DNA of 43,895 bases from a virus. Of this stretch, positions 21,681 to 38,650 are shown piece by piece. The position numbers were made by a program, and so were the translations under genes. The first letter of the stretch is position 1; each line of letters begins with the position of its first letter. The notes under the pieces are model-generated. The model was not told where the DNA came from, searched no databases, and worked only from the letters and a program-made list of their open reading frames with translations. The DNA lies in the UHGV virus genome UHGV-0356621. One strand, 5' to 3'.

Positions 21681-23083
21681 CAGGCTTGCCTCCCGAGCAA
21701 TTCCCAAATATCCATTGTTGTATCGGTCGGCGCGAACGCCATTATGAAAGCGTCGGCAATGTTAGGTGAGGGGATATCGCGCTTAGCCAAATCTTTCTTG
21801 CTTTCAACCATAACCCTACCGTTACGATCAAAGTCTCGGTGCGGGGTCGTCAGCTCAAGCTTTAGTTTCTCCAGGTGCGGGCACGATGAATCGATACTTA
21901 TCAACTCATCAACAGGATATTCCTCTCCATTTTTCACCGCGTTGAACGTATTACGAAAGCGATCAGCTACCAGCCACCATGCCTGGGCTTTCAGATTGGC
22001 AAAGAAGTCTTTATTCGGAATGCCGTTATATTCAGAATCTGGCTCGTTCACACCAGCGCCAGCATTGAAGCGTTGATAATTAACTGGTCGTGAATAAGGA
22101 TTTTCACGTCGTCTGTCTTCGTTAATTTCCGAGAATTTAGCACCAGCAGAAGCGCCAACACCAATGGAGTCATAAACGATATCAGCACTTCTCTCTGTGG
22201 CTGCCTGATATGCCCGCTGGCAGCTTTTAAGAAGCTCGTCTTCTTTTGCCTTCCATTCATCAGCCCAATACACAACGGAGCCATGACGATAAACATTGGA
22301 GCACTTATCCGCACCGCTATCGGCAACGTCGAAGCCTATTCGCTTTCGTCCGTTTGGCTCAAAACCAAGCACCTTATGGGCATCTATTGCAGCCTCAATC
22401 CACGAAAGTTTAATAATTGCCGCGTCATCATCAGATTCGGGAACCCCCATATAAACGTGGTCAAACCCCTCCGGATCACGACGCTTTGCAGCCGAGATAA
22501 CCTTAAGCATGGTGTCTGAGAGGAATGGGTTTTCGTCGTAATTGATTTTTCTCACCAACGTATCTTCTGGTGGATCAACAACGAAATTACGCCATACAAA
22601 GTCAGTCACCAGACCAGGGTTAAAAATAAACCAGCATTCAGATCCGCTTTTACGAATGGTTGGTTCCAGTATCTTCCACTGGTATTCCGTTAGTGCATGG
22701 GCTTCTTCAAGCCACAAAACGCTGATACCTTCCAGGGATTTAATTTCTTCGATATTGCGCCATAAACCGTAAAACACGAATTCTGAGCCAGTGACCCGGT
22801 TGATAATTTTATTATTCAGAATTCGGAAGCGATGCCGCAGCCCAAACCGTTCAATCTGTATTTTGAGCAGGGTATAAACCGACTCTTCGATTTTGTTCTG
22901 AATTTGACGTGCGCAACAGAAACGCAGGTTGTATTTATTTGCCAGAAAGACAGCAAACCCAGCAGCATCCCATGACTTTGACGATGAGCGCCCACCAAAA
23001 AGTACTTTATTTCGAGCCTGTGTCGTCCAGAAGTTCCTTAGAGCCGGATTCAGGGTCGGTTTGGATGTCAGAGTAGAAGTCAT
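21680..23083 (-). CDS. Terminase large subunit (Terminase_3/PBSX-like)
   Basis: Walker A GGRSSSKS lies near the N-terminus, LWLEEAH is Walker B-like, and there is a C-terminal nuclease region (GFDVADSG...). The start is uncertain (ATGs at 23083-23125); all candidates overlap the terS 3' end. Confidence 0.85.
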   Translation of the reverse strand: MTSTLTSKPTLNPALRNFWTTQARNKVLFGGRSSSKSWDAAGFAVFLANKYNLRFCCARQIQNKIEESVYTLLKIQIERFGLRHRFRILNNKIINRVTGSEFVFYGLWRNIEEIKSLEGISVLWLEEAHALTEYQWKILEPTIRKSGSECWFIFNPGLVTDFVWRNFVVDPPEDTLVRKINYDENPFLSDTMLKVISAAKRRDPEGFDHVYMGVPESDDDAAIIKLSWIEAAIDAHKVLGFEPNGRKRIGFDVADSGADKCSNVYRHGSVVYWADEWKAKEDELLKSCQRAYQAATERSADIVYDSIGVGASAGAKFSEINEDRRRENPYSRPVNYQRFNAGAGVNEPDSEYNGIPNKDFFANLKAQAWWLVADRFRNTFNAVKNGEEYPVDELISIDSSCPHLEKLKLELTTPHRDFDRNGRVMVESKKDLAKRDIPSPNIADAFIMAFAPTDTTMDIWELLGRQA

Positions 23084-23762
23084 TAAGGTCACGATCTCCA
23101 TTACCGTCATCAACGCCAGCATCACGACGAAGGCGATCCGCTTCCAGAGACACTTTGTCAGTGGAGGCGAGCCGATGCTCTATAGATGCCTTTGTGAATT
23201 CCAGCGACTCAATGCGGGCCGTGTTACGGTGCATGGCCTTTTCAGCAGAGGAAATCAGCGAGTGGAGTTCCTTCGCTTTGTCATCATCGGCCAGCTCCAG
23301 CTCAGCCTGCCAGCGCCCGATATTCTCCGCCGCCGTCAGATTCGCCGCGCGCAGCCAGAACAACTCATCGTCGAGCGTGAGCAGCTTCGCGTCTTCGGTG
23401 ATTGCGTCAGAGAGCAGCATCCTGCGACCGTAGCCGCCGTGCTTCAATGCGTTCTGATTTCCGGGTCTGGAATTATAATGAGCGCGTTTCGTTTCTGGTG
23501 AGTTTGATGGTTTTGCGACTTCGCAGTTATCCACTAAGCCCGCTGGTGGCTTACTCTTTGCCACTTTCTCCTTTTGCGAATTCGCAGTTTTATTCGCACT
23601 TTTCTTTTGCGAATTCGCACTACCATTCGCAATTTTGATATAGCGCTTTGCAGTCGAGTAATTCAGTCCCTGCGCTTCGCACCATTCTTTGGGGGAAATG
23701 CCGGTTTTGGCATGTTCGGACAGGAACCGTTGCTGAAGCTCGCCCCAGTCCGGCTTTGCCAT
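23007..23762 (-). CDS. Terminase small subunit
   Basis: The N-terminal HTH (GISPKEWCEAQGLNYSTAKRYI) is followed by a Lys/Ser/Asn-rich linker and a coiled coil. It lies immediately upstream of terL. Confidence 0.7.
   Translation of the reverse strand: MAKPDWGELQQRFLSEHAKTGISPKEWCEAQGLNYSTAKRYIKIANGSANSQKKSANKTANSQKEKVAKSKPPAGLVDNCEVAKPSNSPETKRAHYNSRPGNQNALKHGGYGRRMLLSDAITEDAKLLTLDDELFWLRAANLTAAENIGRWQAELELADDDKAKELHSLISSAEKAMHRNTARIESLEFTKASIEHRLASTDKVSLEADRLRRDAGVDDGNGDRDLNDFYSDIQTDPESGSKELLDDTGSK
23572..23637. repeat. 33-bp tandem duplication carrying TGCGAATTCGCA palindromes and ATTCGCA half-sites, inside terS
   Basis: Palindromes are at 23575-23586 and 23608-23619, with a related TGCGACTTCGCA at 23514-23525. 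ATTCGCA half-sites are at 23592-23598 and 23625-23631. Confidence 0.85.
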
Positions 23763-23819
23763 GAATATTTCCTCTTAATGACATTATCGAAGCCCCTCAG
23801 TGAAGAGCTTCTGTAATGG

Positions 23820-32756: not shown

Positions 32757-33742
32757 CGCATCACCTCATAGGCCCAGTCAGTGTTGTTGAAGTCCAGATC
32801 CGGCTTGCCAGATTCTTCGCCTGTCTGCTGCTTGTTGCGTTTGATATCGAGCTGAGTCCACTTGTCGCGCAGCGTTGCCGGACATAGAACATTTCCCTTC
32901 CAGAACTTGTCGTTACAGGCCCATTTGAACAGGGCAGCAATTTCGTAGTGGGTGCGATCGTCACGCTCGCGCATCAGGCGGATGTCGTTAGCCCACGCTG
33001 CATAGTTTGGTTTTTTGGCAGATGGTGAAATGCTTTGCACCATGGTGAACAGCCATTCCGCGCAGCGAAGGTCTTCAGAGTTACCCCACTTTGTGCCGCT
33101 CTGAATTGCCGCTTCAGGTTTCATGACAGGCGGTTTCTTTCCGGGCTTGTCAGAGGATTCGTCAGAATTCTCGGACGTAGAGTTATTTATATTCTTGTTA
33201 TTACCTTCTTGTTCATGATGTGCGGGGAATTGTGCGGCCTTATGTGCGGCATACCCATCTGAACCCGCGCCGTTACTGACTTCATCATGTGCGCCTGTAT
33301 GTGCGGCTTTATGTGCGGGTAAATCGTCCATTTTTTGAGCATATTCGACGTAATTTGTGATGGTGATCACCCTGCCTTTTCGTTTCTCTCCCTCGATGGA
33401 AATCATCCCTTCGCGGACGAAAACTGACAGCATTCTCTCCACAGCGTCGCGGCTTGTCGGGTTGCCCTGACGGTCACACAACTGAAGGCCAAGATCTGCA
33501 GCAGTGACGACCAGTTGACCGGGTTGCAGAGGCCATTGCTTGCCCTTGAAGAATGCCGTGTATGGCTGTCTGGCTGCGTCAATGAGCAGGTTCTCCCACA
33601 GCGCGCGCAGGAACACATCCTTAGCCCAGGACTTCTTCTTGATGCTCCGGTACAACGGGACGTAACCAGACTTCTGGTTCTCCATCCTGTTGCTCCTTGC
33701 GGCTGAGTGCGCCGCGAAATTTGCGTAAGCGACGTTCGACAC
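32753..33742 (-). CDS. O: Replication initiator (O-like)
   Basis: GTG start with AGGAGG 7 nt upstream. An N-terminal winged-helix-like region (GYVPLYRSIKKKSWAKDVFLRALWENLL...) is followed by a low-complexity linker and a C-terminal domain. It lies directly upstream of P. Confidence 0.7.
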   Translation of the reverse strand: MSNVAYANFAAHSAARSNRMENQKSGYVPLYRSIKKKSWAKDVFLRALWENLLIDAARQPYTAFFKGKQWPLQPGQLVVTAADLGLQLCDRQGNPTSRDAVERMLSVFVREGMISIEGEKRKGRVITITNYVEYAQKMDDLPAHKAAHTGAHDEVSNGAGSDGYAAHKAAQFPAHHEQEGNNKNINNSTSENSDESSDKPGKKPPVMKPEAAIQSGTKWGNSEDLRCAEWLFTMVQSISPSAKKPNYAAWANDIRLMRERDDRTHYEIAALFKWACNDKFWKGNVLCPATLRDKWTQLDIKRNKQQTGEESGKPDLDFNNTDWAYEVMR

Positions 33743-33823
33743 AGTTAAACCTCCTGCGCCTGGCGTTTTGGATTAGCGTTTGTCATAATGACCTCGCAAT
33801 TGACTGACGTTTGTTGCACCAGA

Positions 33824-33852
33824 AAGCCGGTTCTGTTCGCGCAGACCGGCTT
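33824..33852 (-). terminator. Hairpin between cII and O (tR1-like candidate; bidirectional shape)
   Basis: AAGCCGGT(T)CTG-ttcgcg-CAGACCGGCTT, a 10-bp stem with one bulge. It is followed by TTTC on the minus strand and by TTTTCCCCTTTC on the plus strand. Confidence 0.5.
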
Positions 33853-33867
33853 TTCCCCTTTCTACGT

Positions 33868-34089
33868 TCATGCTTCAAAATCTCCCTTCTCTCCATCCCT
33901 GTTCGAAATCAGGATGGCAAGCAGCAGCGACATGTTCGGTACCAGGTTTTCCCGCCACCGGCTGACTGTGGATTTGTTGATGCCAGCTACTTCGGCTATC
34001 CGGGCGGTACCCAGATCAGCGATTTGCCGCTGCACCCAGCTCTCAATTCGTCGTGCCTCCGCTTTGTTGCGTGTCGTTAAGGTCTCCAT
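33868..34089 (-). CDS. cII: CII-like transcriptional activator
   Basis: RNKAEARRIESWVQRQIADLGTARIAEVAGINKSTVSRWRENLVPNMSLLLAIL parallels lambda CII (RNEALRIES...LGTEKTAEAVGVDKSQISRW...SMLLAVL). GAGGAA SD is present. Confidence 0.75.
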   Translation of the reverse strand: METLTTRNKAEARRIESWVQRQIADLGTARIAEVAGINKSTVSRWRENLVPNMSLLLAILISNRDGEKGDFEA

Positions 34090-34116
34090 TTGCGATACTT
34101 CCTCTGAATTAATTGG

Positions 34117-34350
34117 TTATGCCGCGGTATTTCGCGGCGAGGCAAAAACCAGGCTCTCTTTGAGCACCGGATCCTGGCGGTGAAATTTTTTTGTGGCATC
34201 TTCGATAGCCGATGCCATTTCTGGTGATGCGCGACGATTTCCGTAAGCGATCTGGTCCAGATAACCTGGCGTTGTGTTTGCCAGTTTTGCGAGCTGCGCC
34301 CATTCGTCTGTAGTGGCGCCCTTACGCCAGCGATGCAGTTCAGTACTCAT
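34117..34350 (-). CDS. cro: Cro-like repressor (YdaS/Cro HTH family)
   Basis: 77 aa and first gene of the leftward operon, divergent from cI. The HTH is WAQLAKLANTTPGYLDQIAYGNRRASPEMASAIEDAT. GGAGA SD is present. Confidence 0.7.
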   Translation of the reverse strand: MSTELHRWRKGATTDEWAQLAKLANTTPGYLDQIAYGNRRASPEMASAIEDATKKFHRQDPVLKESLVFASPRNTAA

Positions 34351-34380
34351 TGGTGTCTCCGGTTGAGTCGTTTGATTTGG

Positions 34381-34409
34381 AGTTTAGCGTTATGCTAAAT
34401 ACTACGCAA
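34381..34409 (-). promoter_or_regulatory. pR candidate: TTGCGT-17 nt-TAAACT
   Basis: On the minus strand, -35 is at 34409-34404 and -10 at 34386-34381. Operator OR1 fills the spacer. It lies about 24 nt upstream of the cro ATG region. Confidence 0.6.
34383..34399. promoter_or_regulatory. Operator OR1: TTTAGCGTTATGCTAAA (perfect TTTAGC-N5-GCTAAA palindrome)
   Basis: Read directly; it overlaps the pR spacer and -10. Confidence 0.7.
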
Positions 34410-34415
34410 GCAACA

Positions 34416-34432
34416 TTTAGCAATTTGCACAT
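34416..34432. promoter_or_regulatory. Operator OR2 candidate: TTTAGCAATTTGCACAT
   Basis: The left half-site is perfect; the right half matches 3/6. Confidence 0.45.
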
Positions 34433-34448
34433 TTATCATTTTGCTAAA
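34432..34448. promoter_or_regulatory. Operator OR3 candidate: TTTATCATTTTGCTAAA
   Basis: Half-sites match 5/6 and 6/6. It lies next to the cI start, and an AACAAT -10-like hexamer (34455-34460) sits 7 nt before the cI ATG, which suggests a leaderless pRM-type transcript. Confidence 0.55.
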
Positions 34449-34466
34449 AGCAGTAACAATGCAGGG

Positions 34467-35144
34467 ATGGAAAATAAAGAAATCAGAAAAGCCAACCTGG
34501 AAGCGCTGTATGAGAAGCGCCAGCACGAGTCTGGAATGACAAAGGCGCAGTTCGCCGAGCTCATCGAGACAAGTCCGGCTGCGCTTAGCCAGCTGCTGGG
34601 ACCAAACCCTCATCGCAATATCGGCGATAAGATGGCTCGCAAAATTGAAAGTGCGCTTGATCTGCCTTTTGGTTGGATGGATGTTTTACACACCAGTGAA
34701 GAACCTTCGAACGTTGCATTTCGAGGACTGAACGAGACAAAAGGAAGTTATCCTGTAATCAGCTGGGTAAGCGCGGGGCAATGGATGGAAGCTGTAGAAC
34801 CTTATCACCGAAGAGCGATAGATCGCTGGTATGACACGACTGTTGACTGCTCAGAAGATTCATTCTGGCTGGACGTTAAAGGGGATTCTATGACCTCCCC
34901 GGCTGGACTGAGCATACCCGAGGGAGCAGCGATACTTGTTGATCCTGAAGTCGAGCCGCGCAACGGAAAGCTGGTTGTCGCGAAGCTAGAAGGCGATAAC
35001 GAAGCGACCTTTAAGAAGCTTGTAATCGATGCCGGCAGACGCTTCCTAAAGCCCCTTAACCCCGCATATCCAATGCTAGAAATTAATGGAAACTGCAAAA
35101 TCATCGGCGTTGTGGTTGATGCCAAAATACTAAACATCCCATAA
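34467..35144 (+). CDS. cI: CI-type repressor (HTH + LexA/S24 autocleavage domain)
   Basis: The N-terminal HTH (MTKAQFAELIETSPAALSQLL) is followed by a C-terminal S24 domain with GDSM (Ser nucleophile) and VVAKLEGDNEATFKKL (Lys), as in lambda CI. The upstream part of the track ORF covers the operators and is rejected. Confidence 0.85.
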   Translation: MENKEIRKANLEALYEKRQHESGMTKAQFAELIETSPAALSQLLGPNPHRNIGDKMARKIESALDLPFGWMDVLHTSEEPSNVAFRGLNETKGSYPVISWVSAGQWMEAVEPYHRRAIDRWYDTTVDCSEDSFWLDVKGDSMTSPAGLSIPEGAAILVDPEVEPRNGKLVVAKLEGDNEATFKKLVIDAGRRFLKPLNPAYPMLEINGNCKIIGVVVDAKILNIP

Positions 35145-35162
35145 CCTCACGCAAAACCCCTC

Positions 35163-35188
35163 AAGCCCGCCATCGCGCGGGCTTTTTT
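35163..35188 (+). terminator. Rho-independent terminator after cI
   Basis: AAGCCCGC-catcgc-GCGGGCTT followed by TTTTTT, 19 nt after the cI stop. Confidence 0.85.
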
Positions 35189-35227
35189 ACGTCCCGAATT
35201 CCTTCGCTGTAAATTTTTAATCGCTTA

Positions 35228-35244
35228 TTAATCAATACGCTAAA
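35228..35244. promoter_or_regulatory. Operator OL3 candidate: TTAATCAATACGCTAAA
   Basis: Half-sites match 4/6 and 6/6. Confidence 0.45.
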
Positions 35245-35260
35245 TAAAACCATTCAACAA

Positions 35261-35277
35261 TTTAGCATTTTGCTATT
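35261..35277. promoter_or_regulatory. Operator OL2 candidate: TTTAGCATTTTGCTATT
   Basis: Half-sites match 6/6 and 4/6. Confidence 0.5.
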
Positions 35278-35304
35278 GCGCATAATTTAGCATCACGCTA
35301 AATT
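35276..35304 (+). promoter_or_regulatory. pL candidate: TTGCGC-17 nt-TAAATT
   Basis: It mirrors the pR architecture (the same -35/-10 words with an operator in the spacer) and fires rightward into the early-left operon. Confidence 0.6.
35286..35302. promoter_or_regulatory. Operator OL1: TTTAGCATCACGCTAAA (perfect half-sites)
   Basis: Read directly; it overlaps the pL spacer and -10. Confidence 0.7.
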
Positions 35305-35862
35305 TACCCCATCGAAACGAAACATCGACAGCTGAGCGAAGTTAGCCAGCGGCGGACAGCAAGTCGCCTGCTTTTTTAACAAATCAGACTGAGTGACAGG
35401 CAAGCCGTAGCTCTCCTGGCAAAAAGAAATGGCACCCGATGGGATCGAGGTAAGCACTGAGTCCGTATGCGTACGGTAGGTGTAGAGGACCACGCTGCGA
35501 TGAGCTGATAAGTCACTCAATTTGAAGCGCTCCGATGATGGGGCGCTGATTCAACTTAGAGGAGTGATTCCAATGAAGAACTAAAGCGGACAGACCGCAG
35601 CCTAAAGGCAATGCAGCAGTAATGATGCCGCCCTGAGTCGCCGAATGGCGAGCCTGTGTAGTGATGGGTCAAGGTTCTTATATCAAAACAAGCTCCGGTA
35701 AAGCAGCGCGAACGCCAGACGCGCACCGGTTATGAGCGGCGATGAGCGACAAGGTCTCAAGGGCATGTGCGCGGCCACTGCGAGAGTGTGGCGAAGTTTA
35801 CCAGCAGCTCTTTGCGAGGGGCTGACGGCAAATCTACTCCACTTATTTAAAAGAGACGGTAT
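35305..35862 (+). ncRNA. Long untranslated pL leader (candidate cis-regulatory/antitermination RNA)
   Basis: No forward ORF of 60 aa or more. By eye, stop codons are frequent in all three forward frames. There are several local hairpins and a long-range 8-bp pairing. GC content is similar to coding DNA. Confidence 0.4.
35348..35378 (+). terminator. Hairpin + U6 about 40 nt after the predicted pL start (attenuator/terminator; U-tract embedded in a boxA-like TGCTTTTTTAACAA)
   Basis: AGC-GGCGG-acagcaag-TCGCC-(T)-GCT followed by TTTTTT. See findings for interpretation. Confidence 0.5.
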
Positions 35863-36036
35863 ATGGATAATCAGGATAATGAGTTAAGAAAGGTTGTTCA
35901 GGAACTTGCTGATGAAGAAGGCATCAGCTTTTCCGATGCCCTAGATGTTTCGATTAAAGCGCTGCGTTATGAGGTAGAGCGCAGAAAATCGTTTAACGGT
36001 GAAGCTGCTTGTGATGGCTCTGCAATTACTTCTTAG
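35863..36036 (+). CDS. 57-aa acidic hypothetical protein (not in the ORF track)
   Basis: MDNQDNELRKVVQELADEEGISFSDALDVSIKALRYEVERRKSFNGEAACDGSAITS. It sits in an AT-rich segment, has a weak SD, and its 3' end overlaps the convergent gene by 11 nt. Confidence 0.3.
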   Translation: MDNQDNELRKVVQELADEEGISFSDALDVSIKALRYEVERRKSFNGEAACDGSAITS

Positions 36037-36304
36037 CCAAGTACCAAGAGGTGTCTGCGGCTTCGGAAACCAGTACGTAATAGCTTTGCTTTACACTACT
36101 AGCTATACCTCTGACTTCCTCTCTAACGTTATATGCAGTTGATGTTTTTACGGTTGTATATTCAGCTGTTGGGAGGTTAAACCAAGTGCCATTACCATCC
36201 TGTATCTCACGCGAATAACCCTTTGCTTTCATCTTTTCATGAAGATTTTCATAGTCTTCAGAATCAGCGCCGCGCAACTCAACTCGAACAATATATCTTG
36301 CCAT
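36026..36304 (-). CDS. 92-aa hypothetical protein, antisense to the early-left operon
   Basis: MARYIVRVELRGADSEDYENLHEKMKAKGYSREIQDG... shows an alternating beta/alpha (ferredoxin-like) pattern and is AT-rich. The long track ORF (to 36595) has a Cys/Ser-rich, implausible extension. Confidence 0.5.
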   Translation of the reverse strand: MARYIVRVELRGADSEDYENLHEKMKAKGYSREIQDGNGTWFNLPTAEYTTVKTSTAYNVREEVRGIASSVKQSYYVLVSEAADTSWYLAKK

Positions 36305-36319
36305 AAGAAGATTCCTATA

Positions 36320-36364
36320 TTGACTGTGGAATGAGCAACATATCAGTTTCCTTTGACTGTGGAA
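36320..36364. repeat. Direct repeat TTGACTGTGGAA (36320-36331 and 36353-36364), period 33 bp
   Basis: Read directly. Similarity extends to ...GAGCAA / AGCAAA. The repeat sits 16-60 nt upstream of the 92-aa gene start. Confidence 0.85.
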
Positions 36365-36530
36365 AGCAAAGGGACACGGGCCGGGCGTGGATAAAAATCC
36401 CGGCAATAACTGGAATGTTTTGTAGTGCAGTGAATTGCAGCTGCATCGACGGCAACCGGAAGATAAGCACCCGGCGCTGCACCACAAAGCATTTCTCCCG
36501 CATCCGCGGGTAACGACAGAGGGTAAAAGG

Positions 36531-36827
36531 ATGATCGACGACATCAAGCGCATCGACTCAATGATAAATGTGCTTCGAAATATGAAACAGGACATTAAGC
36601 GCCAGCAGAAACTAAGTGAAATAAACAGCTTAGACCTTACGCCAAAGCAAGCTCAAAAGCGCAATGCCGATGCTGGCTGGATTGCGATGGAACAGATTAA
36701 GCGCCGGCATGAGCTGCACGCTCTGTCAGTTGAGCTTGGGTTCGCTGAACGCCGGGAAAGTTATGCTCCATTTGAATTAACTGACGGGTGGCACCGATTC
36801 AACCACAAGCCGCGCGAACCTCAATAG
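36531..36827 (+). CDS. Hypothetical early protein
   Basis: 98 aa starting MIDDIKRIDSMINVLRNMKQDIKRQQK, with a GAGGGTAAAAGG SD region. The internal ATG of the track ORF is used. Confidence 0.45.
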   Translation: MIDDIKRIDSMINVLRNMKQDIKRQQKLSEINSLDLTPKQAQKRNADAGWIAMEQIKRRHELHALSVELGFAERRESYAPFELTDGWHRFNHKPREPQ

Positions 36828-36848
36828 CCGCCTAGCCAGCGGCTTTTT
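36826..36848 (+). terminator. Intrinsic terminator inside the early-left operon
   Basis: AGCCGC-ctagcca-GCGGCT followed by TTTTT; it overlaps the stop codon of the preceding ORF. Confidence 0.65.
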
Positions 36849-36980
36849 CATACCTGGAGTCATTTACGAGTGGCTTAGTTATGACAACCGGCGGCCATCC
36901 ATCGCCCATTGAAACACATAAAAGTGCGTTGAAGTCTTGTATTAACCGTTCCGTTCGCCGCGATAAGGCTAAGAGGATTT

Positions 36981-37241
36981 ATGAGCACTGTAAAGATGAT
37001 TGGCGCCAGTCCACTAACTGGAACAATTTTCGAAGGACGACTTAACCCAGTCAAAAGCTGCTGGGTTGGAAAGAAAACAGATGTTACCGATATGGTTCTG
37101 AGAGCTACCGCTGACCACCTCTACGTTGTGAAAAAGGAATATGCGTTCCCGTTACGAGACGGAAAGGTGGCTGTGTTGAGCATGCATATTTTCGATGAAT
37201 TGCCAGAGCGCTTCATTGGTGGCACGGAGCATGGCGAATGA
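36981..37241 (+). CDS. Hypothetical early protein
   Basis: 86-aa ORF with an AAGAGG SD. It is the first of a chain of ATGA-coupled ORFs. Confidence 0.45.
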   Translation: MSTVKMIGASPLTGTIFEGRLNPVKSCWVGKKTDVTDMVLRATADHLYVVKKEYAFPLRDGKVAVLSMHIFDELPERFIGGTEHGE

Positions 37242-37399
37242 TGACAGTCACCCACAACGGCAAGCAGTACACCGCCAAAAAGCTCAACGATAACGAGTGG
37301 CAGCTGACGTCCGTATCGGCACCGCGTGAAAAGCTGACGCTTAACCGCTGGCAGATGCATATGGCTGGCCTCCTGGTACAGGTAGAGGTGAAGGTATGA
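37238..37399 (+). CDS. 53-aa hypothetical protein (not in the ORF track)
   Basis: MMTVTHNGKQYTAKKLNDNEWQLTSVSAPREKLTLNRWQMHMAGLLVQVEVKV, with ATGA overlaps at both ends. Confidence 0.35.
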   Translation: MMTVTHNGKQYTAKKLNDNEWQLTSVSAPREKLTLNRWQMHMAGLLVQVEVKV

Positions 37400-37602
37400 T
37401 TGGAATGCACTACGGCACCGCATCAGTGCCACGTAGCGAGGTTTTACCTGGCACAATGCTGCAACACCACGGCAAAACTTATCGCGCCTCTGCGAACGTT
37501 GAGAAAGGCCTGTACGCCTTCAACATCTTCGAAAAAACCATCATCAAAAGTGATTCCGTCGTTGTGCTGCTGAATGAGCGCGGCGAGCCGATGGTTCACT
37601 GA
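37396..37602 (+). CDS. Hypothetical early protein
   Basis: 68-aa ORF, ATGA-coupled to the previous ORF. Confidence 0.4.
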   Translation: MIGMHYGTASVPRSEVLPGTMLQHHGKTYRASANVEKGLYAFNIFEKTIIKSDSVVVLLNERGEPMVH

Positions 37603-37678
37603 TACCAACCAACCTATTCAACCGATCGGCCTGGCTAAAAGCGGGCGGGATCTGCACATCCAAATTTCAGGAGAAACC

Positions 37679-38650
37679 ATGAGCGAAGTAACGGACTTAA
37701 CTGTCATCGAAATCAAGCCGGAACAGGCCCCAGTGCTTTACGTAGCGGGCGGCCTTGACGCGTACCTTGAGCAAATCCGCCAGGCTGTAAACGAAGTGCC
37801 GGACCTGTCCACGAAGAAAGGCCGTGACCGTGTTGCCTCTCTGGCAGCGCAGGTGTCCCGCAGCAAGACGGCAATCGAAAAGCCGGGCCGTGAGTACCTG
37901 AAGCGCCTGAAAGAGGCTGTACGCCCTGCCGAGGCCGAAATTAAGCGATTCGTTGATGCCTGCGACGAGCTGCGCGATGCGACCCGCCGCCCACTCACCG
38001 AATGGGAAGCCGAGCAGGAACGCATTAAGGCTGAAGAAGCCATGAACGCGATGCACGCCGAAGCGCTGGAGATGAACATCAGGTTCGATCAGGAGCTGGC
38101 TGCCAAGTTCGAAGCGGACCACGAAATGGCTCTACTGATGAACAAGGATTTTGACCGTGACCGCGAAGAGCAGCGCCGTCTGGCGGAACAGGCTCAGCGT
38201 GAACGTGATGAGCGGCTGAAACAGGAAGCGGCAGAACAAGCCCGCCGCGATGCCGAAGCGAAGCACAAAGCGGAGATTGAAGCCGCAGCGCGCCGTGAAG
38301 CTGAAGAGAAAGCACGTGCAGAGCTGGCTGAACGCCAGCGCGTCGAAGCGGAACAGCGTGCAGCTCGCGAGAAGCAGGAAGCAGAAGCCCGGGCAGAACG
38401 CGAAAAAGCCGCGGCGGTTGAAGCCGAGCGCCTGAAGGCCAAACAGGCCGAAGATGCCCGCCTGGCCGAAGAGAAGCGCCTCGCCGATGAGCAGGCAAAG
38501 CGTGAAGCTGACGTTAAGCACCGCAAGACGGTCGGCACCAACATCGTTAACGCGCTCACCAGCAACACCAGCTTAACCCGCGAACAGGCTATCGAAGTGC
38601 TTACCGCTCTGAAAGATGACCTCATCCCCTGCGCGAAAATTCATTACTGA
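37679..38650 (+). CDS. DUF1351-like protein with long Glu/Ala/Arg/Lys coiled-coil (TolA-like) region
   Basis: Start at MSEVTDL, with a CAGGAG SD. The folded N-terminal part is followed by about 150 aa of EAxRxAExK low-complexity helix. It lies just upstream of the SSAP gene, as DUF1351 proteins often do (from memory). Confidence 0.55.
   Translation: MSEVTDLTVIEIKPEQAPVLYVAGGLDAYLEQIRQAVNEVPDLSTKKGRDRVASLAAQVSRSKTAIEKPGREYLKRLKEAVRPAEAEIKRFVDACDELRDATRRPLTEWEAEQERIKAEEAMNAMHAEALEMNIRFDQELAAKFEADHEMALLMNKDFDRDREEQRRLAEQAQRERDERLKQEAAEQARRDAEAKHKAEIEAAARREAEEKARAELAERQRVEAEQRAAREKQEAEARAEREKAAAVEAERLKAKQAEDARLAEEKRLADEQAKREADVKHRKTVGTNIVNALTSNTSLTREQAIEVLTALKDDLIPCAKIHY

Follow-up and report, generated by a model that had tools for sequence, protein, structure and literature searches.

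The closest described counterpart of the locus examined here lies in the e14 prophage of Escherichia coli K-12, which has an equivalent arrangement (ymfK-ymfJ>/<ymfI). There ymfI is antisense to the early-left genes, just past the gene for the CI-like repressor YmfK, and converges on and overlaps a small acidic open reading frame, ymfJ. Of 58 MG1655 transcriptomes, at least half contain convergent ymfI and ymfJ transcripts that overlap (PMC12288877), and SOS induction is strong for ymfJ and far weaker for ymfI (PMC11002266; PMC2634741). The sieB-ydaF pair of the Rac prophage is also among the convergent overlapping transcription units of these 58 transcriptomes (PMC12288877) and, like lambda rexAB, is oriented against or independent of pL near the immunity region. 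For the encoded protein the relevant comparisons are GhoS (YjdK), whose gene in K-12 heads the ghoS-ghoT operon with both genes on one strand, and Cas2, which has a small RNase/DNase fold. In GhoS the residue most important for RNase activity is reported to be R28 (PMC4010927).

Within the 43.9-kb window, the whole stretch of viral DNA that was analysed, we identify a convergent pair encoding proteins of 57 and 92 residues, p57 and p92. Like YmfI, p92 belongs to PHROG 8894 (phrog_8894; E 9.7e-33 over its full length, against E 8.6e-40 for K-12 YmfI), is encoded antisense to the early-left genes, close beyond a repressor gene, and converges on and overlaps a small acidic open reading frame; the same stems are found upstream of both genes, and both have a TG-extended -10. 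In contrast, p92 has no BLAST-level similarity to YmfI and stays under the NCBIfam YmfI cut-off, YmfJ is not a homologue of p57, and the e14 promoter has a single CCACA-type element where p92 has two 12-mers. SieB and Rex resemble p92 in their setting, but have no homology to it, and p92 has no PADLOC match. The original prediction had assigned the gene to a sieB-type niche, and the resemblance to Rac sieB is supported by the appearance of both sieB-ydaF and ymfI-ymfJ among the convergent overlapping units (PMC12288877). The p92 family is large and common in enterobacterial prophages, including ymfI/ymfJ of K-12, and has no known function. A search of the literature on DUF2622, GhoS-like phage proteins and Dazbog gave nothing usable.

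Setting of the pair and its variable slot

The setting was defined by a search for the CI operator pattern TTTAGC-N5-GCTAAA with up to two mismatches, all five matches of which fall in oR or oL, and by alignment with phage phi80. The features are as follows.

34383-34448: oR, cluster of CI operators (TTTAGC-N5-GCTAAA), from operator-pattern matches
35228-44, 35261-77 and 35286-302, plus strand: oL operators, from operator-pattern matches
35276-81 and 35299-304, plus strand: predicted pL, -35 TTGCGC and -10 TAAATT, from alignment with the annotated phi80 pL
35797-35836, plus strand: conserved left-flank element of the slot (TTTACCAGCAGCTCTTTGCGAGGGGCTGACGG), common to HK639 and E. coli LR-28
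35863-36036, plus strand: p57, putative early gene in the sense of pL, 57 aa, acidic protein of two helices, C-terminal tail disordered
36026-36036: tail-to-tail overlap of p57 and p92, 11 nt, read off the sequence
36026-36304, minus strand: p92, YmfI-family gene with a predicted GhoS/Cas2 fold, 92 aa, antisense to pL
36375-78 with 36386-89: stem B, right edge of the slot, interleaved with stem A, double changes at four of four pairs
36380-85 with 36399-404: stem A, right edge of the slot, 95% paired, with GC<->UA double changes
36531-36827, plus strand: phi80-type N gene

The sequence from 35304 to 35382 is 97% identical to the phi80 pL leader, including nutL boxA. Since oL and pL occupy 35228-35304 and N starts at 36531, the p57/p92 pair lies between pL and N, with p92 opposing pL. 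Both reading frames and their 11-nt overlap are present as originally predicted, as is the AT-rich patch, with a GC content of 43.7% over 35790-36405 compared to 52.5% for the window. The placement of the pair in the early-left operon needs adjustment: p92 is indeed antisense to pL, but the pair sits in a long pL leader upstream of N and not deep inside the operon.

As the explanation of the locus as a whole we lean towards a self-contained two-gene accessory cassette, 35837-36374, inserted in a variable slot between pL/nutL and N. Among similar prophages the pair is present or absent between conserved flanks. E. coli LR-28, which is without N, is 99.7% identical over 35790-36405, and other prophages whose cI and flanks are the same have instead the ECs_2282/HK639_45 cassette or an HNH gene in the slot. 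In some prophages the pair is placed after N rather than before it. Of the traits looked for in a prophage moron, the cassette has a distinct, low GC content and a conserved promoter-like sequence, and a scan for intrinsic terminators found none on either strand within 35863-36400.

The flanks can be followed into other phages. The left-flank element forms the 3' part of an annotated putL-like RNA in HK639; a full HK639-type putL RNA upstream of the cassette was ruled out, as only the last ~40 nt are in common. Stems A and B also occur in HK639 and in one further locus (L006), both of which have a different cassette, and are part of the backbone and not of the cassette. Rfam returned nothing relevant for 33000-38000.

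The position of the gene recurs. More than 30 prophages have a p92-like gene that opposes the early-left operon, at 0.7-4 kb from cI in the downstream sense of pL transcription, with a small acidic open reading frame ending within the 3' end of the gene. A CI-type repressor was detected in 34 loci, and in each of them it is 0.7-4 kb away and on the opposite strand. Most prophage relatives have a small minus-sense open reading frame that ends 4-15 nt inside the p92-like gene. The locus shows the synteny of the YmfI family, being antisense to the early-left genes, near the repressor and converging on a small open reading frame.

The p92 and p57 proteins

Translation of p92 starts at an ATG at 36304, with a Shine-Dalgarno sequence, AGGAA, at 36312-36316. 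The gene is conserved in relatives and under purifying selection (dN/dS 0.04-0.13), in agreement with the original view of it as a real minus-strand gene set against pL, and across p57 and p92 together the dN/dS values (0.04-0.25) rule out spurious reading frames. The family comprises 2043 clusters (50% identity) matching at E<=1e-3, with members also outside phages. Against the NCBIfam model YmfI_phage (NF051477) p92 scores 59.6 bits (E 3.3e-16), short of the cut-off of 140, and is related to this family but no equivalog. The match to Pfam GhoS (PF11080, formerly DUF2622) covers residues 2-72 and is marginal, with an E value of 9.8e-5 and 22.7 bits against a cut-off of 21.

The AlphaFold2 model of p92 (pLDDT 95.3) has the order beta-alpha-beta-beta-beta-alpha-beta. 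GhoS is its best structural match and the fold agrees with the solved GhoS structure, so that the ferredoxin-like impression gained originally from the sequence is confirmed in the model as a GhoS/Cas2-like fold. The predicted likeness to Cas2 is limited to this fold; p92 has neither Cas1 nor CRISPR sequences around it, does not resemble Cas2 in sequence, and is predicted as a single chain. The invariant polar residues of the family (R7, E9, H22, R32, E48, K53 and E63) would fit an RNA-binding or RNA-cleaving protein, and we infer that p92 acts on RNA. When the two proteins are aligned by hand along the Pfam match, the invariant H22 of p92 takes the place of R28 of GhoS, which suggests that catalysis in p92 may differ or be absent.

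The partner protein, p57, has a net charge of about -6 and is modelled by AlphaFold2 as a helix hairpin (pLDDT 83). Its homologues form 39 clusters of 65-98% identity across the Enterobacterales, with a dN/dS of 0.10-0.25 and third-position bias. No match was found in Pfam, PHROG, NCBIfam or PADLOC, nor a significant one in a Foldseek search of the PDB with the model. Every p57 homologue that we located is adjoined by a convergent 92-aa gene. p57 is no chance neighbour but a constant partner of p92.

This arrangement suggests how the two genes may be expressed. p57 would be read from pL as an early gene and p92 in the opposite direction from its own promoter, such that p92 alone would be made while pL is repressed. 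After induction, transcription from pL would meet no terminator before p92 and would cross first the gene and then its promoter in the opposing direction. Transcriptional interference, together with antisense pairing, would then be expected to reduce p92 expression at the time when p57 is made. Both the activity of the p92 promoter and this timing are inferred. The most likely role of p92 would be an RNA-acting one in the lysogen, either in exclusion or defence or in the control of prophage transcripts. If p92 were a lysogen-specific RNase, this would be a new kind of prophage exclusion or lysogeny-control function, and would explain the relatives that adjoin DndB/DzbA-like defence genes.

The constant pairing, together with the mobility of p57 and p92 as a single cassette, could also indicate that p92 is a harmful or antiviral RNase of the lysogen, which early p57 binds and neutralises on induction beside the convergent shut-off. 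In other prophages non-homologous small acidic helical reading frames occupy the same convergent overlapping position, GhoS is made toxic by two point mutations (PMC4010927), and p57 has a weak, non-significant likeness to ribbon-helix-helix antitoxins. We nevertheless consider an effector and inhibitor unlikely. The partner classes are mutually non-homologous, with hhalign detecting no homology between the p57-like, MKFxEL-type and YmfJ-like classes, and the defence-island relatives have no such partner. The adjacency could just reflect the insertion site of the cassette, and in several pairs p57 is more conserved than p92, which is not expected under tight co-evolution.

Rather more speculative is an induction-licensed RNase switch, in which a lysogen-only RNase of the GhoS/Cas2 fold, autoregulated through the 12-mers, would guard against superinfecting phages or leaky prophage transcripts and be turned off on induction by head-on pL transcription, antisense 3' ends and inhibition by p57. 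Were this doubtful proposal true, e14 ymfJ/ymfI and the DndB/DzbA-linked relatives would be versions of the same logic, and the switch may be of a kind not yet described.

Putative promoter of p92 and its two repeats

The region upstream of p92 contains the following features, all on the minus strand.

36320-36331: proximal repeat, TTCCACAGTCAA on the p92 strand, about +1 to +12, immediately upstream of the Shine-Dalgarno sequence
36337-36345: predicted extended -10 of the p92 promoter, TGaTATGTT, with a conserved hexamer
36353-36364: distal repeat, TTCCACAGTCAA on the p92 strand, overlapping the -35 TTTCCA
36360-36365: putative -35 hexamer of p92, TTTCCA, with a 17-bp spacer to the TG-extended -10 TATGTT

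We predict that p92 has its own sigma-70 promoter, with a transcription start near 36330-36333. Across 36 distinct upstream sequences the -10 hexamer varies only as TAnnnT (TATGTT, TAATCT, TAACCT, TAGACT, TACGTT and others), mostly with TG in front. A consensus promoter scan of 34000-37000 gave no hit at threshold, even for pL and pR. The 75 nt upstream of p92 homologues are 70-95% identical where the coding sequences are 56-73% identical and third positions 32-55%, and synonymous sites are close to saturation. The promoter region is better conserved than the coding sequence, although this could be due in part to recombination at mosaic boundary sequences rather than to function. An 8-codon upstream open reading frame (MLLIPQSI) with translational coupling was considered and rejected, its start and frame not being kept in relatives.

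The original prediction of a repeat-bearing promoter region specific to the 92-aa gene agrees well with these alignments, which reveal a conserved, promoter-like sequence with the repeats inside it. As had been reported, TTGACTGTGGAA occurs in two exact copies with a 33-bp period, 36320-36331 and 36353-36364, and these are the only two in the window. For exact direct repeats that are 12 nt or longer and within 60 bp the expectation is 0.18 per window, and 13.5% of Markov-1 simulated windows contain one, so the pair taken alone is only mildly unusual. The real evidence for the repeats is instead their recurrence, since dozens of other loci have the same 12-mer pair in front of their p92 homologue, again at -60 and -27. 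The motif is present in 43 of 147 loci, and only at these two positions of a p92-like gene; a role as a genome-wide target is excluded by its two copies in the window and its absence elsewhere in the 4-kb flanks of the 147 loci. It is also absent from the alternative cassette of the slot. Among 32 aligned loci the CCACA core of the proximal repeat is invariant and the other positions of its 12-mer nearly so, while in the distal repeat CTTTCCACAG is invariant.

Several candidate roles for the repeats could be set aside. CI and Cro operators have a different consensus (TTTAGC-N5-GCTAAA) and are confined to oR and oL, and the repeats accompany the p92-like gene across prophages with different repressors; binding of CI or Cro is therefore unlikely. 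Pairing of the repeats as arms of an RNA hairpin (TTCC...GGAA) that masks the Shine-Dalgarno sequence was rejected, given that we observed no covariation and that breaks in the pairing are tolerated. The two 12-mers would seem to be sequence-specific sites and not RNA stems. Their location on the -35 and on the predicted transcript start, three helical turns apart, is what is commonly seen where a repressor or autoregulator binds. Because the 12-mers move with the cassette, the first candidate for the binding protein is the cassette's own product. Both copies carry an identical change in three loci (L015, L097 and L115), and again in L120. No residues of p92 were found to co-vary with the repeat variants, which are few and come from a small sample. 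The locus provides a testable module in a model organism, comprising a gene that is always set against the early-left operon, a small acidic early gene that ends inside it and a promoter conserved beyond the level of the coding sequence, with two co-varying 12-mers.

It is possible, but in our view improbable, that the repeats are instead sites for a conserved host factor, or that they just record a past tandem duplication of 33 bp in the promoter region and bind no dedicated regulator. Across hosts of a single order the motif has changed less than the protein, and in e14 ymfI and other relatives the promoter is shorter, as if one unit of ~33 bp had been taken out of this region. The repeat core (TTTCCACA / TATTCCACA), which we take to resemble a DnaA box, would be one lead for a host factor. 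However, conservation extends to 12 of 12 positions, including the GTCAA that a DnaA box can do without. Concerted change of the two copies, seen in at least two lineages, is easier to reconcile with gene conversion or a factor specific to the cassette than with a fixed site for a host protein. At the divergence seen in the synonymous sites, a neutral remnant would have decayed.

A main function of the antisense promoter itself, limiting how far transcription from pL continues into N and the downstream early genes (cf. lambda paQ, oop), with the protein secondary, would suit a promoter that is head-on to pL, 170-200 bp upstream of N and the best conserved part of the cassette, but is very improbable given the strong purifying selection on p92 (dN/dS 0.04-0.13), the size of its family, which extends outside phages, and the occurrence of the pair elsewhere after N or in prophages without N.

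The GhoS label and the neighbours of distant relatives

Equally hard to sustain is a true type V toxin-antitoxin system, in which p92 would act as the GhoS antitoxin by cutting the mRNA of its partner, a membrane toxin. This reading would account for the name ghoS given to a near-identical gene in RefSeq, the Pfam GhoS match above cut-off and the rank of GhoS as top structural match. Yet sequence identity to GhoS is only 15%, and p92 is borne on a prophage and converges on its neighbour, whereas ghoS is followed by its toxin gene on the same strand. There is no adjacent co-transcribed gene for a GhoT/OrtT-type membrane toxin: a tblastn search of the window with K-12 GhoT gave a best E value of 1.2, at an unrelated place, and the small open reading frames adjoining p92 have no match in Pfam, GhoT included, and none of them is strongly hydrophobic. 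The constant partner, p57, is acidic, soluble and convergent, and is not co-transcribed downstream. Among 147 loci a GhoT-like open reading frame was present in one only, 4 kb away. The invariant His in place of R28 in the hand alignment is a further difference. As no GhoT-type toxin is present nearby, p92 and its neighbour are not a GhoS/GhoT pair, and the RefSeq label "type V antitoxin GhoS" for the near-identical gene is probably an over-annotation. Genome pipelines apply the name "type V antitoxin" to members of the family in the absence of the toxin, and surveys of toxin-antitoxin and defence systems can be misled by it.

In keeping with the sieB/rexAB-type niche of the original prediction, siblings with the same cI have other cassettes in the slot, and distant p92 relatives lie in defence islands. 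No model of PADLOC-DB 2.0 matches p92, p57 or four distant relatives of p92. The defence-island relatives, which are only 35-45% identical, have DndB-like, DzbA-like, helicase-nuclease and CBASS cyclase genes as neighbours, and among the neighbours PADLOC-DB 2.0 matched DndB, DzbA and the CBASS cyclase.

The convergent pair and its place in the early-left region

An AT-rich patch (43.7% GC at 35790-36405 versus 52.5% in the window) contains all of the elements named in the original prediction: two convergent ORFs with an 11-nt tail-to-tail overlap and, upstream of the minus-strand ORF, two exact copies of the 12-mer TTGACTGTGGAA. The finding holds up, and on firmer ground than the sequence alone could give. 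The ORFs encode an acidic 57-residue protein (p57) and a 92-residue protein (p92), in the following setting.

Features of the early-left region and the gene pair
34117-34350 (-), Cro-like gene
34383-34448, oR operators, TTTAGC-N5-GCTAAA
about 34467-35144 (+), S24/HTH repressor gene
35163-35184, intrinsic terminator 3' of the repressor gene
35228-35302, oL operators, TTTAGC-N5-GCTAAA
35863-36036 (+), p57 ORF, 57 aa, net charge about -6
36026-36304 (-), p92 ORF, 92 aa, ATG start at 36304
36312-36316 (-), AGGAA Shine-Dalgarno of the p92 gene, read in the sequence

The operator pattern, with up to two mismatches, gave five matches, all at oR or oL and none elsewhere. The stretch 35304-35382 matches the phi80 pL leader at 97% identity, from the annotated -10 end through the nutL boxA, and 36485-36900 is 95% identical to phi80 N plus the tL1 terminator; phi80 lacks the 1.1 kb that separates these matches. 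Flanked in this way, the pair lies upstream of N in the pL transcript and the p92 gene opposes pL, so that the predicted antisense orientation is borne out by the operator positions and the phi80 matches together. Within 35304-36530, this 1.1 kb replaces 293 bp of phi80 between pL leader and N, including the annotated nutL core hairpin, and therefore places the N start about 1.2 kb from pL. Right after pL, a plus-strand terminator-like hairpin with a T run (35351-35368) overlaps the phi80-type nutL boxA, and its sequence is identical in phi80. Klebsiella phages RothC/RothD have, shortly after the Q antiterminator gene, a sequence that matches about 200 bp at 35593-35791 with 90% identity. The wider segment 35451-35789 is absent from the prophage of E. 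coli LR-28, which is otherwise nearly identical.

Both ORFs proved to be conserved in relatives, and both are real genes under purifying selection. For p57 we found 39 homologue clusters across Enterobacterales (65-98% identity), with dN/dS of 0.10-0.25 and differences mostly at third codon positions; for p92 dN/dS is 0.04-0.13, with synonymous sites near saturation. p57 matched nothing in Pfam, PHROGs, NCBIfam or PADLOC. Its AlphaFold2 model (pLDDT 83) has two helices and a disordered C-terminal tail, and a Foldseek search with this model gave no significant match, the weak top hits being ribbon-helix-helix antitoxins and repressors.

A cassette in a variable slot

The p57/p92 pair is a cassette occupying a variable slot between pL/nutL and N. 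The stretch 35790-36405 is 99.7% identical in the LR-28 prophage, which has the same cI and no N gene, while other E. coli prophages with this cI carry in the slot either an HNH gene or one that RefSeq calls "ECs_2282-family zinc-binding protein". In HK639 the slot is occupied by gene 45, and in Klebsiella and Cronobacter prophages the pair sits just after an N gene, not before it.

Flanks common to the slot occupants
35797-35836, left flank, TTTACCAGCAGCTCTTTGCGAGGGGCTGACGG
36375-36404, right flank, an interleaved stem pair, then AATAACTGGAATGTTTTGTAGTG

The left element (32-40 nt, conserved) precedes the first ORF of the slot and contains a boxA-like GCTCTTT. It is shared with the 3' part of an RNA named putL-like in the HK639 record; the rest of that put-like RNA is absent from the window. 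In the right flank, 36380-85 pairs with 36399-404 and 36375-78 with 36386-89, and a comparison of 32 loci shows compensatory changes in these stems. Read in the direction of pL, the topology is that of a pseudoknot with a 1-nt first loop and an A-rich last loop, AUAAAAAU. The stems also occur in HK639 and an E. coli prophage, both without a GhoS-like cassette, and so belong to the backbone upstream of N. For one piece of slot DNA, present in an E. coli prophage with another cassette (L006, 3432-3986) and in HK639 (L002, 2548-2895), the records place the gene on different strands: RefSeq has a minus-strand "ECs_2282 family putative zinc-binding protein" whose start reaches into N-leader sequence, and the HK639 record has gene 45 on the plus strand. 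Probably at most one of these calls is right over its full length.

We fetched p92 relatives from one-genome-per-species contigs and IMG/VR, and the antisense position and convergent overlap are recurrent. A CI-type repressor gene lies 0.7-4 kb past the 3' end of the p92-like gene, on the opposite strand, in 34 of 34 loci with a recognisable repressor; RecT, where detected, is on the other side. The 3' end of the p92-like gene is overlapped, at most prophage loci, by the last 4-15 nt of a small acidic ORF running the other way. We distinguish at least three classes of such partners (p57-like, MKFxEL...AFIAME-type and YmfJ-like), between which no homology was detectable. Wherever a fetched locus contained a p57 homologue, this converged on and overlapped a p92-like gene (28/28), and four further homologues, looked up independently in Klebsiella, Citrobacter, Cronobacter and Franconibacter, all had the same arrangement. 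E. coli K-12 e14 shares this layout, with the repressor gene ymfK, then ymfJ, the convergent overlapping ymfI, and ymfH-xisE-intE.

Family and fold of p92

The proposed ferredoxin-like fold is also that of the AlphaFold2 model (pLDDT 95.3). p92 narrowly passes Pfam GhoS (PF11080; 22.7 bits, cut-off 21) and belongs to an already named, uncharacterised family, YmfI / phrog_8894 / DUF2622. It matches phrog_8894 with E 1e-32 (9e-40 for e14 YmfI), and scores 59.6 bits against the NCBIfam YmfI equivalog, under the cut-off of 140. A profile of 21 relatives found 2043 clusters at 50% identity (E<=1e-3), nearly all of them stand-alone and about 92-100 aa long. Among the residues that do not vary in close relatives are R7, E9, Y18, H22, R32, E48, Y49, K53, E63 and W87. 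E9 lies at the end of strand 1, the place of the catalytic Asp in Cas2. A hand alignment in the register of the Pfam match sets H22 opposite GhoS R28, the residue on which GhoS RNase activity is reported to depend most (PMC4010927). We infer that p92 acts on RNA, in a role that could be exclusion, defence or control of prophage transcripts.

A type V GhoT/GhoS system is very unlikely, as the GhoT partner is absent: no GhoT homologue was found in the window or beside relatives, and the small ORFs neighbouring p92 gave no Pfam hit and none is strongly hydrophobic. The RefSeq product name of the LR-28 gene (type V antitoxin GhoS) is therefore unsupported as a functional claim. In K-12, unlike here, ghoS and ghoT are co-oriented neighbours.

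Outside phages, relatives of 35-45% identity occur in Acidobacteria, sphingomonads and other groups. They directly follow, on the same strand, one of three kinds of gene: DndB-like (Pfam PF14072, E down to 2e-56), a PADLOC DzbA match (E 3e-29) or an AAA_16 ATPase. The DndB-/DzbA-like arrangement is seen at loci L024, L028-L031, L047, L050 and others (about 4001 in each). Downstream of the relative comes a gene for a large helicase-nuclease, replaced in one case by a CBASS cyclase. By this guilt by association, the distant relatives may be small, so far undescribed parts of defence islands; PADLOC gave no match for p92 or for the four distant relatives searched. At one locus, in Tatumella punctata (L039, 1956-2230), the p92-like gene is interrupted after 49 codons and continues in a second frame, and the p57-like partner and promoter repeats are kept.

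The predicted repeat-bearing promoter and proposed expression of p92

The two 12-mers, 33 bp apart, are the only copies in the window. By itself the repeat is only mildly unusual: at this composition a window should hold 0.18 exact direct repeats of at least 12 nt within 60 bp, and one turns up in 13.5% of the simulations. We take it as real because it is conserved in other genomes. The p92 promoter region is under stronger constraint than the coding sequence, with 12-mers at -35 and +1. Identity to the window over the 75 nt 5' of the start codon is 70-95% at loci where that of the coding sequence is down to 56-73%, of third codon positions to 32-55% and of the protein to 38-85%. Aligning 32 upstream regions (a first version had 36 distinct sequences) gave the consensus, on the p92 strand, ctgCTTTCCACAGtCaAaggAAa.TGa-TA.gtTggt.atTCCACAGtCAAtata.G.a...ATG.

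Elements of the predicted p92 promoter region, minus strand
36360-36365 (-), predicted -35, TTTCCA, 17 bp upstream of the -10 hexamer
36353-36364 (-), distal 12-mer, overlapping the predicted -35
36337-36342 (-), predicted -10 hexamer, varying only as TAnnnT, usually after TG
36320-36331 (-), proximal 12-mer, from about the predicted start to just before the Shine-Dalgarno

The hexamer variants (TATGTT, TAATCT, TAACCT, TAGACT, TACGTT, TAATTT, TAAACT and others), with the preceding TG, are the signature of an extended -10. A simple consensus scan of 34000-37000 called no promoter at its threshold, and missed pL and pR too.

The 12-mer is present in 43 of 147 loci; the alternative cassette of this slot lacks it. 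The copies are unrelated to the CI/Cro operator TTTAGC-N5-GCTAAA. Apparent TTCC...GGAA pairings around each copy lack covariation and broken pairing is tolerated, so the copies look like sequence sites, not RNA stems. Both copies carry an identical T-to-A change at three loci (L015, L097, L115) and an identical A-to-G change at L120; several further changes affect one copy only. Such concerted change fits a cassette-borne factor or gene conversion between the copies, and a fixed host site less well. In a small sample, no p92 residues tracked the variants. The 12-mers would bind a regulator, perhaps a cassette product.

We propose that repression of pL would leave p92 expressed from a promoter of its own, and that on induction pL read-through would lower its expression; a terminator scan found none between the pL and p92 promoters. 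The main rival is that p57 may be a direct inhibitor of p92 as well, which would account for the inseparability of the two genes. Published e14 data fit the proposed expression pattern. Of 58 MG1655 transcriptomes, at least half show transcript overlap for the convergent ymfI-ymfJ pair (PMC12288877), ymfJ is among the late, strongly SOS-induced genes (log2 change 4.8, only 2.0 for ymfI; PMC11002266), and SOS genes cluster with ymfJ, xisE and ymfL (PMC2634741). The system-level picture, an orphan GhoS-fold gene against pL with a constant convergent partner and a repeat-bearing promoter, appears undescribed; the literature that could be searched gave no account of it.

The promoter is shorter in other subfamilies, e14 ymfI among them: the upstream stems abut the TG-extended -10, and just one element, TTCTCACAC or TTCCACAC, stands before the Shine-Dalgarno. 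Apart from the 12-mer pair, the window has a single exact direct repeat of this kind (at least 12 nt, within 60 bp): CTTTTGCGAATTCGCA at 23571-23619, which also has a 33-bp period and lies in or beside ORFs 23007-23762 (-) and 23574-23816 (+). At the checked loci the 12-mer is confined to two positions on the strand of the p92-like gene, about -60 and -27 from it. The exception is the IMG/VR locus L096: its two copies (2637-2681) are followed about 1.3 kb downstream by a truncated p92-like match, which points to a rearranged cassette or a second one.
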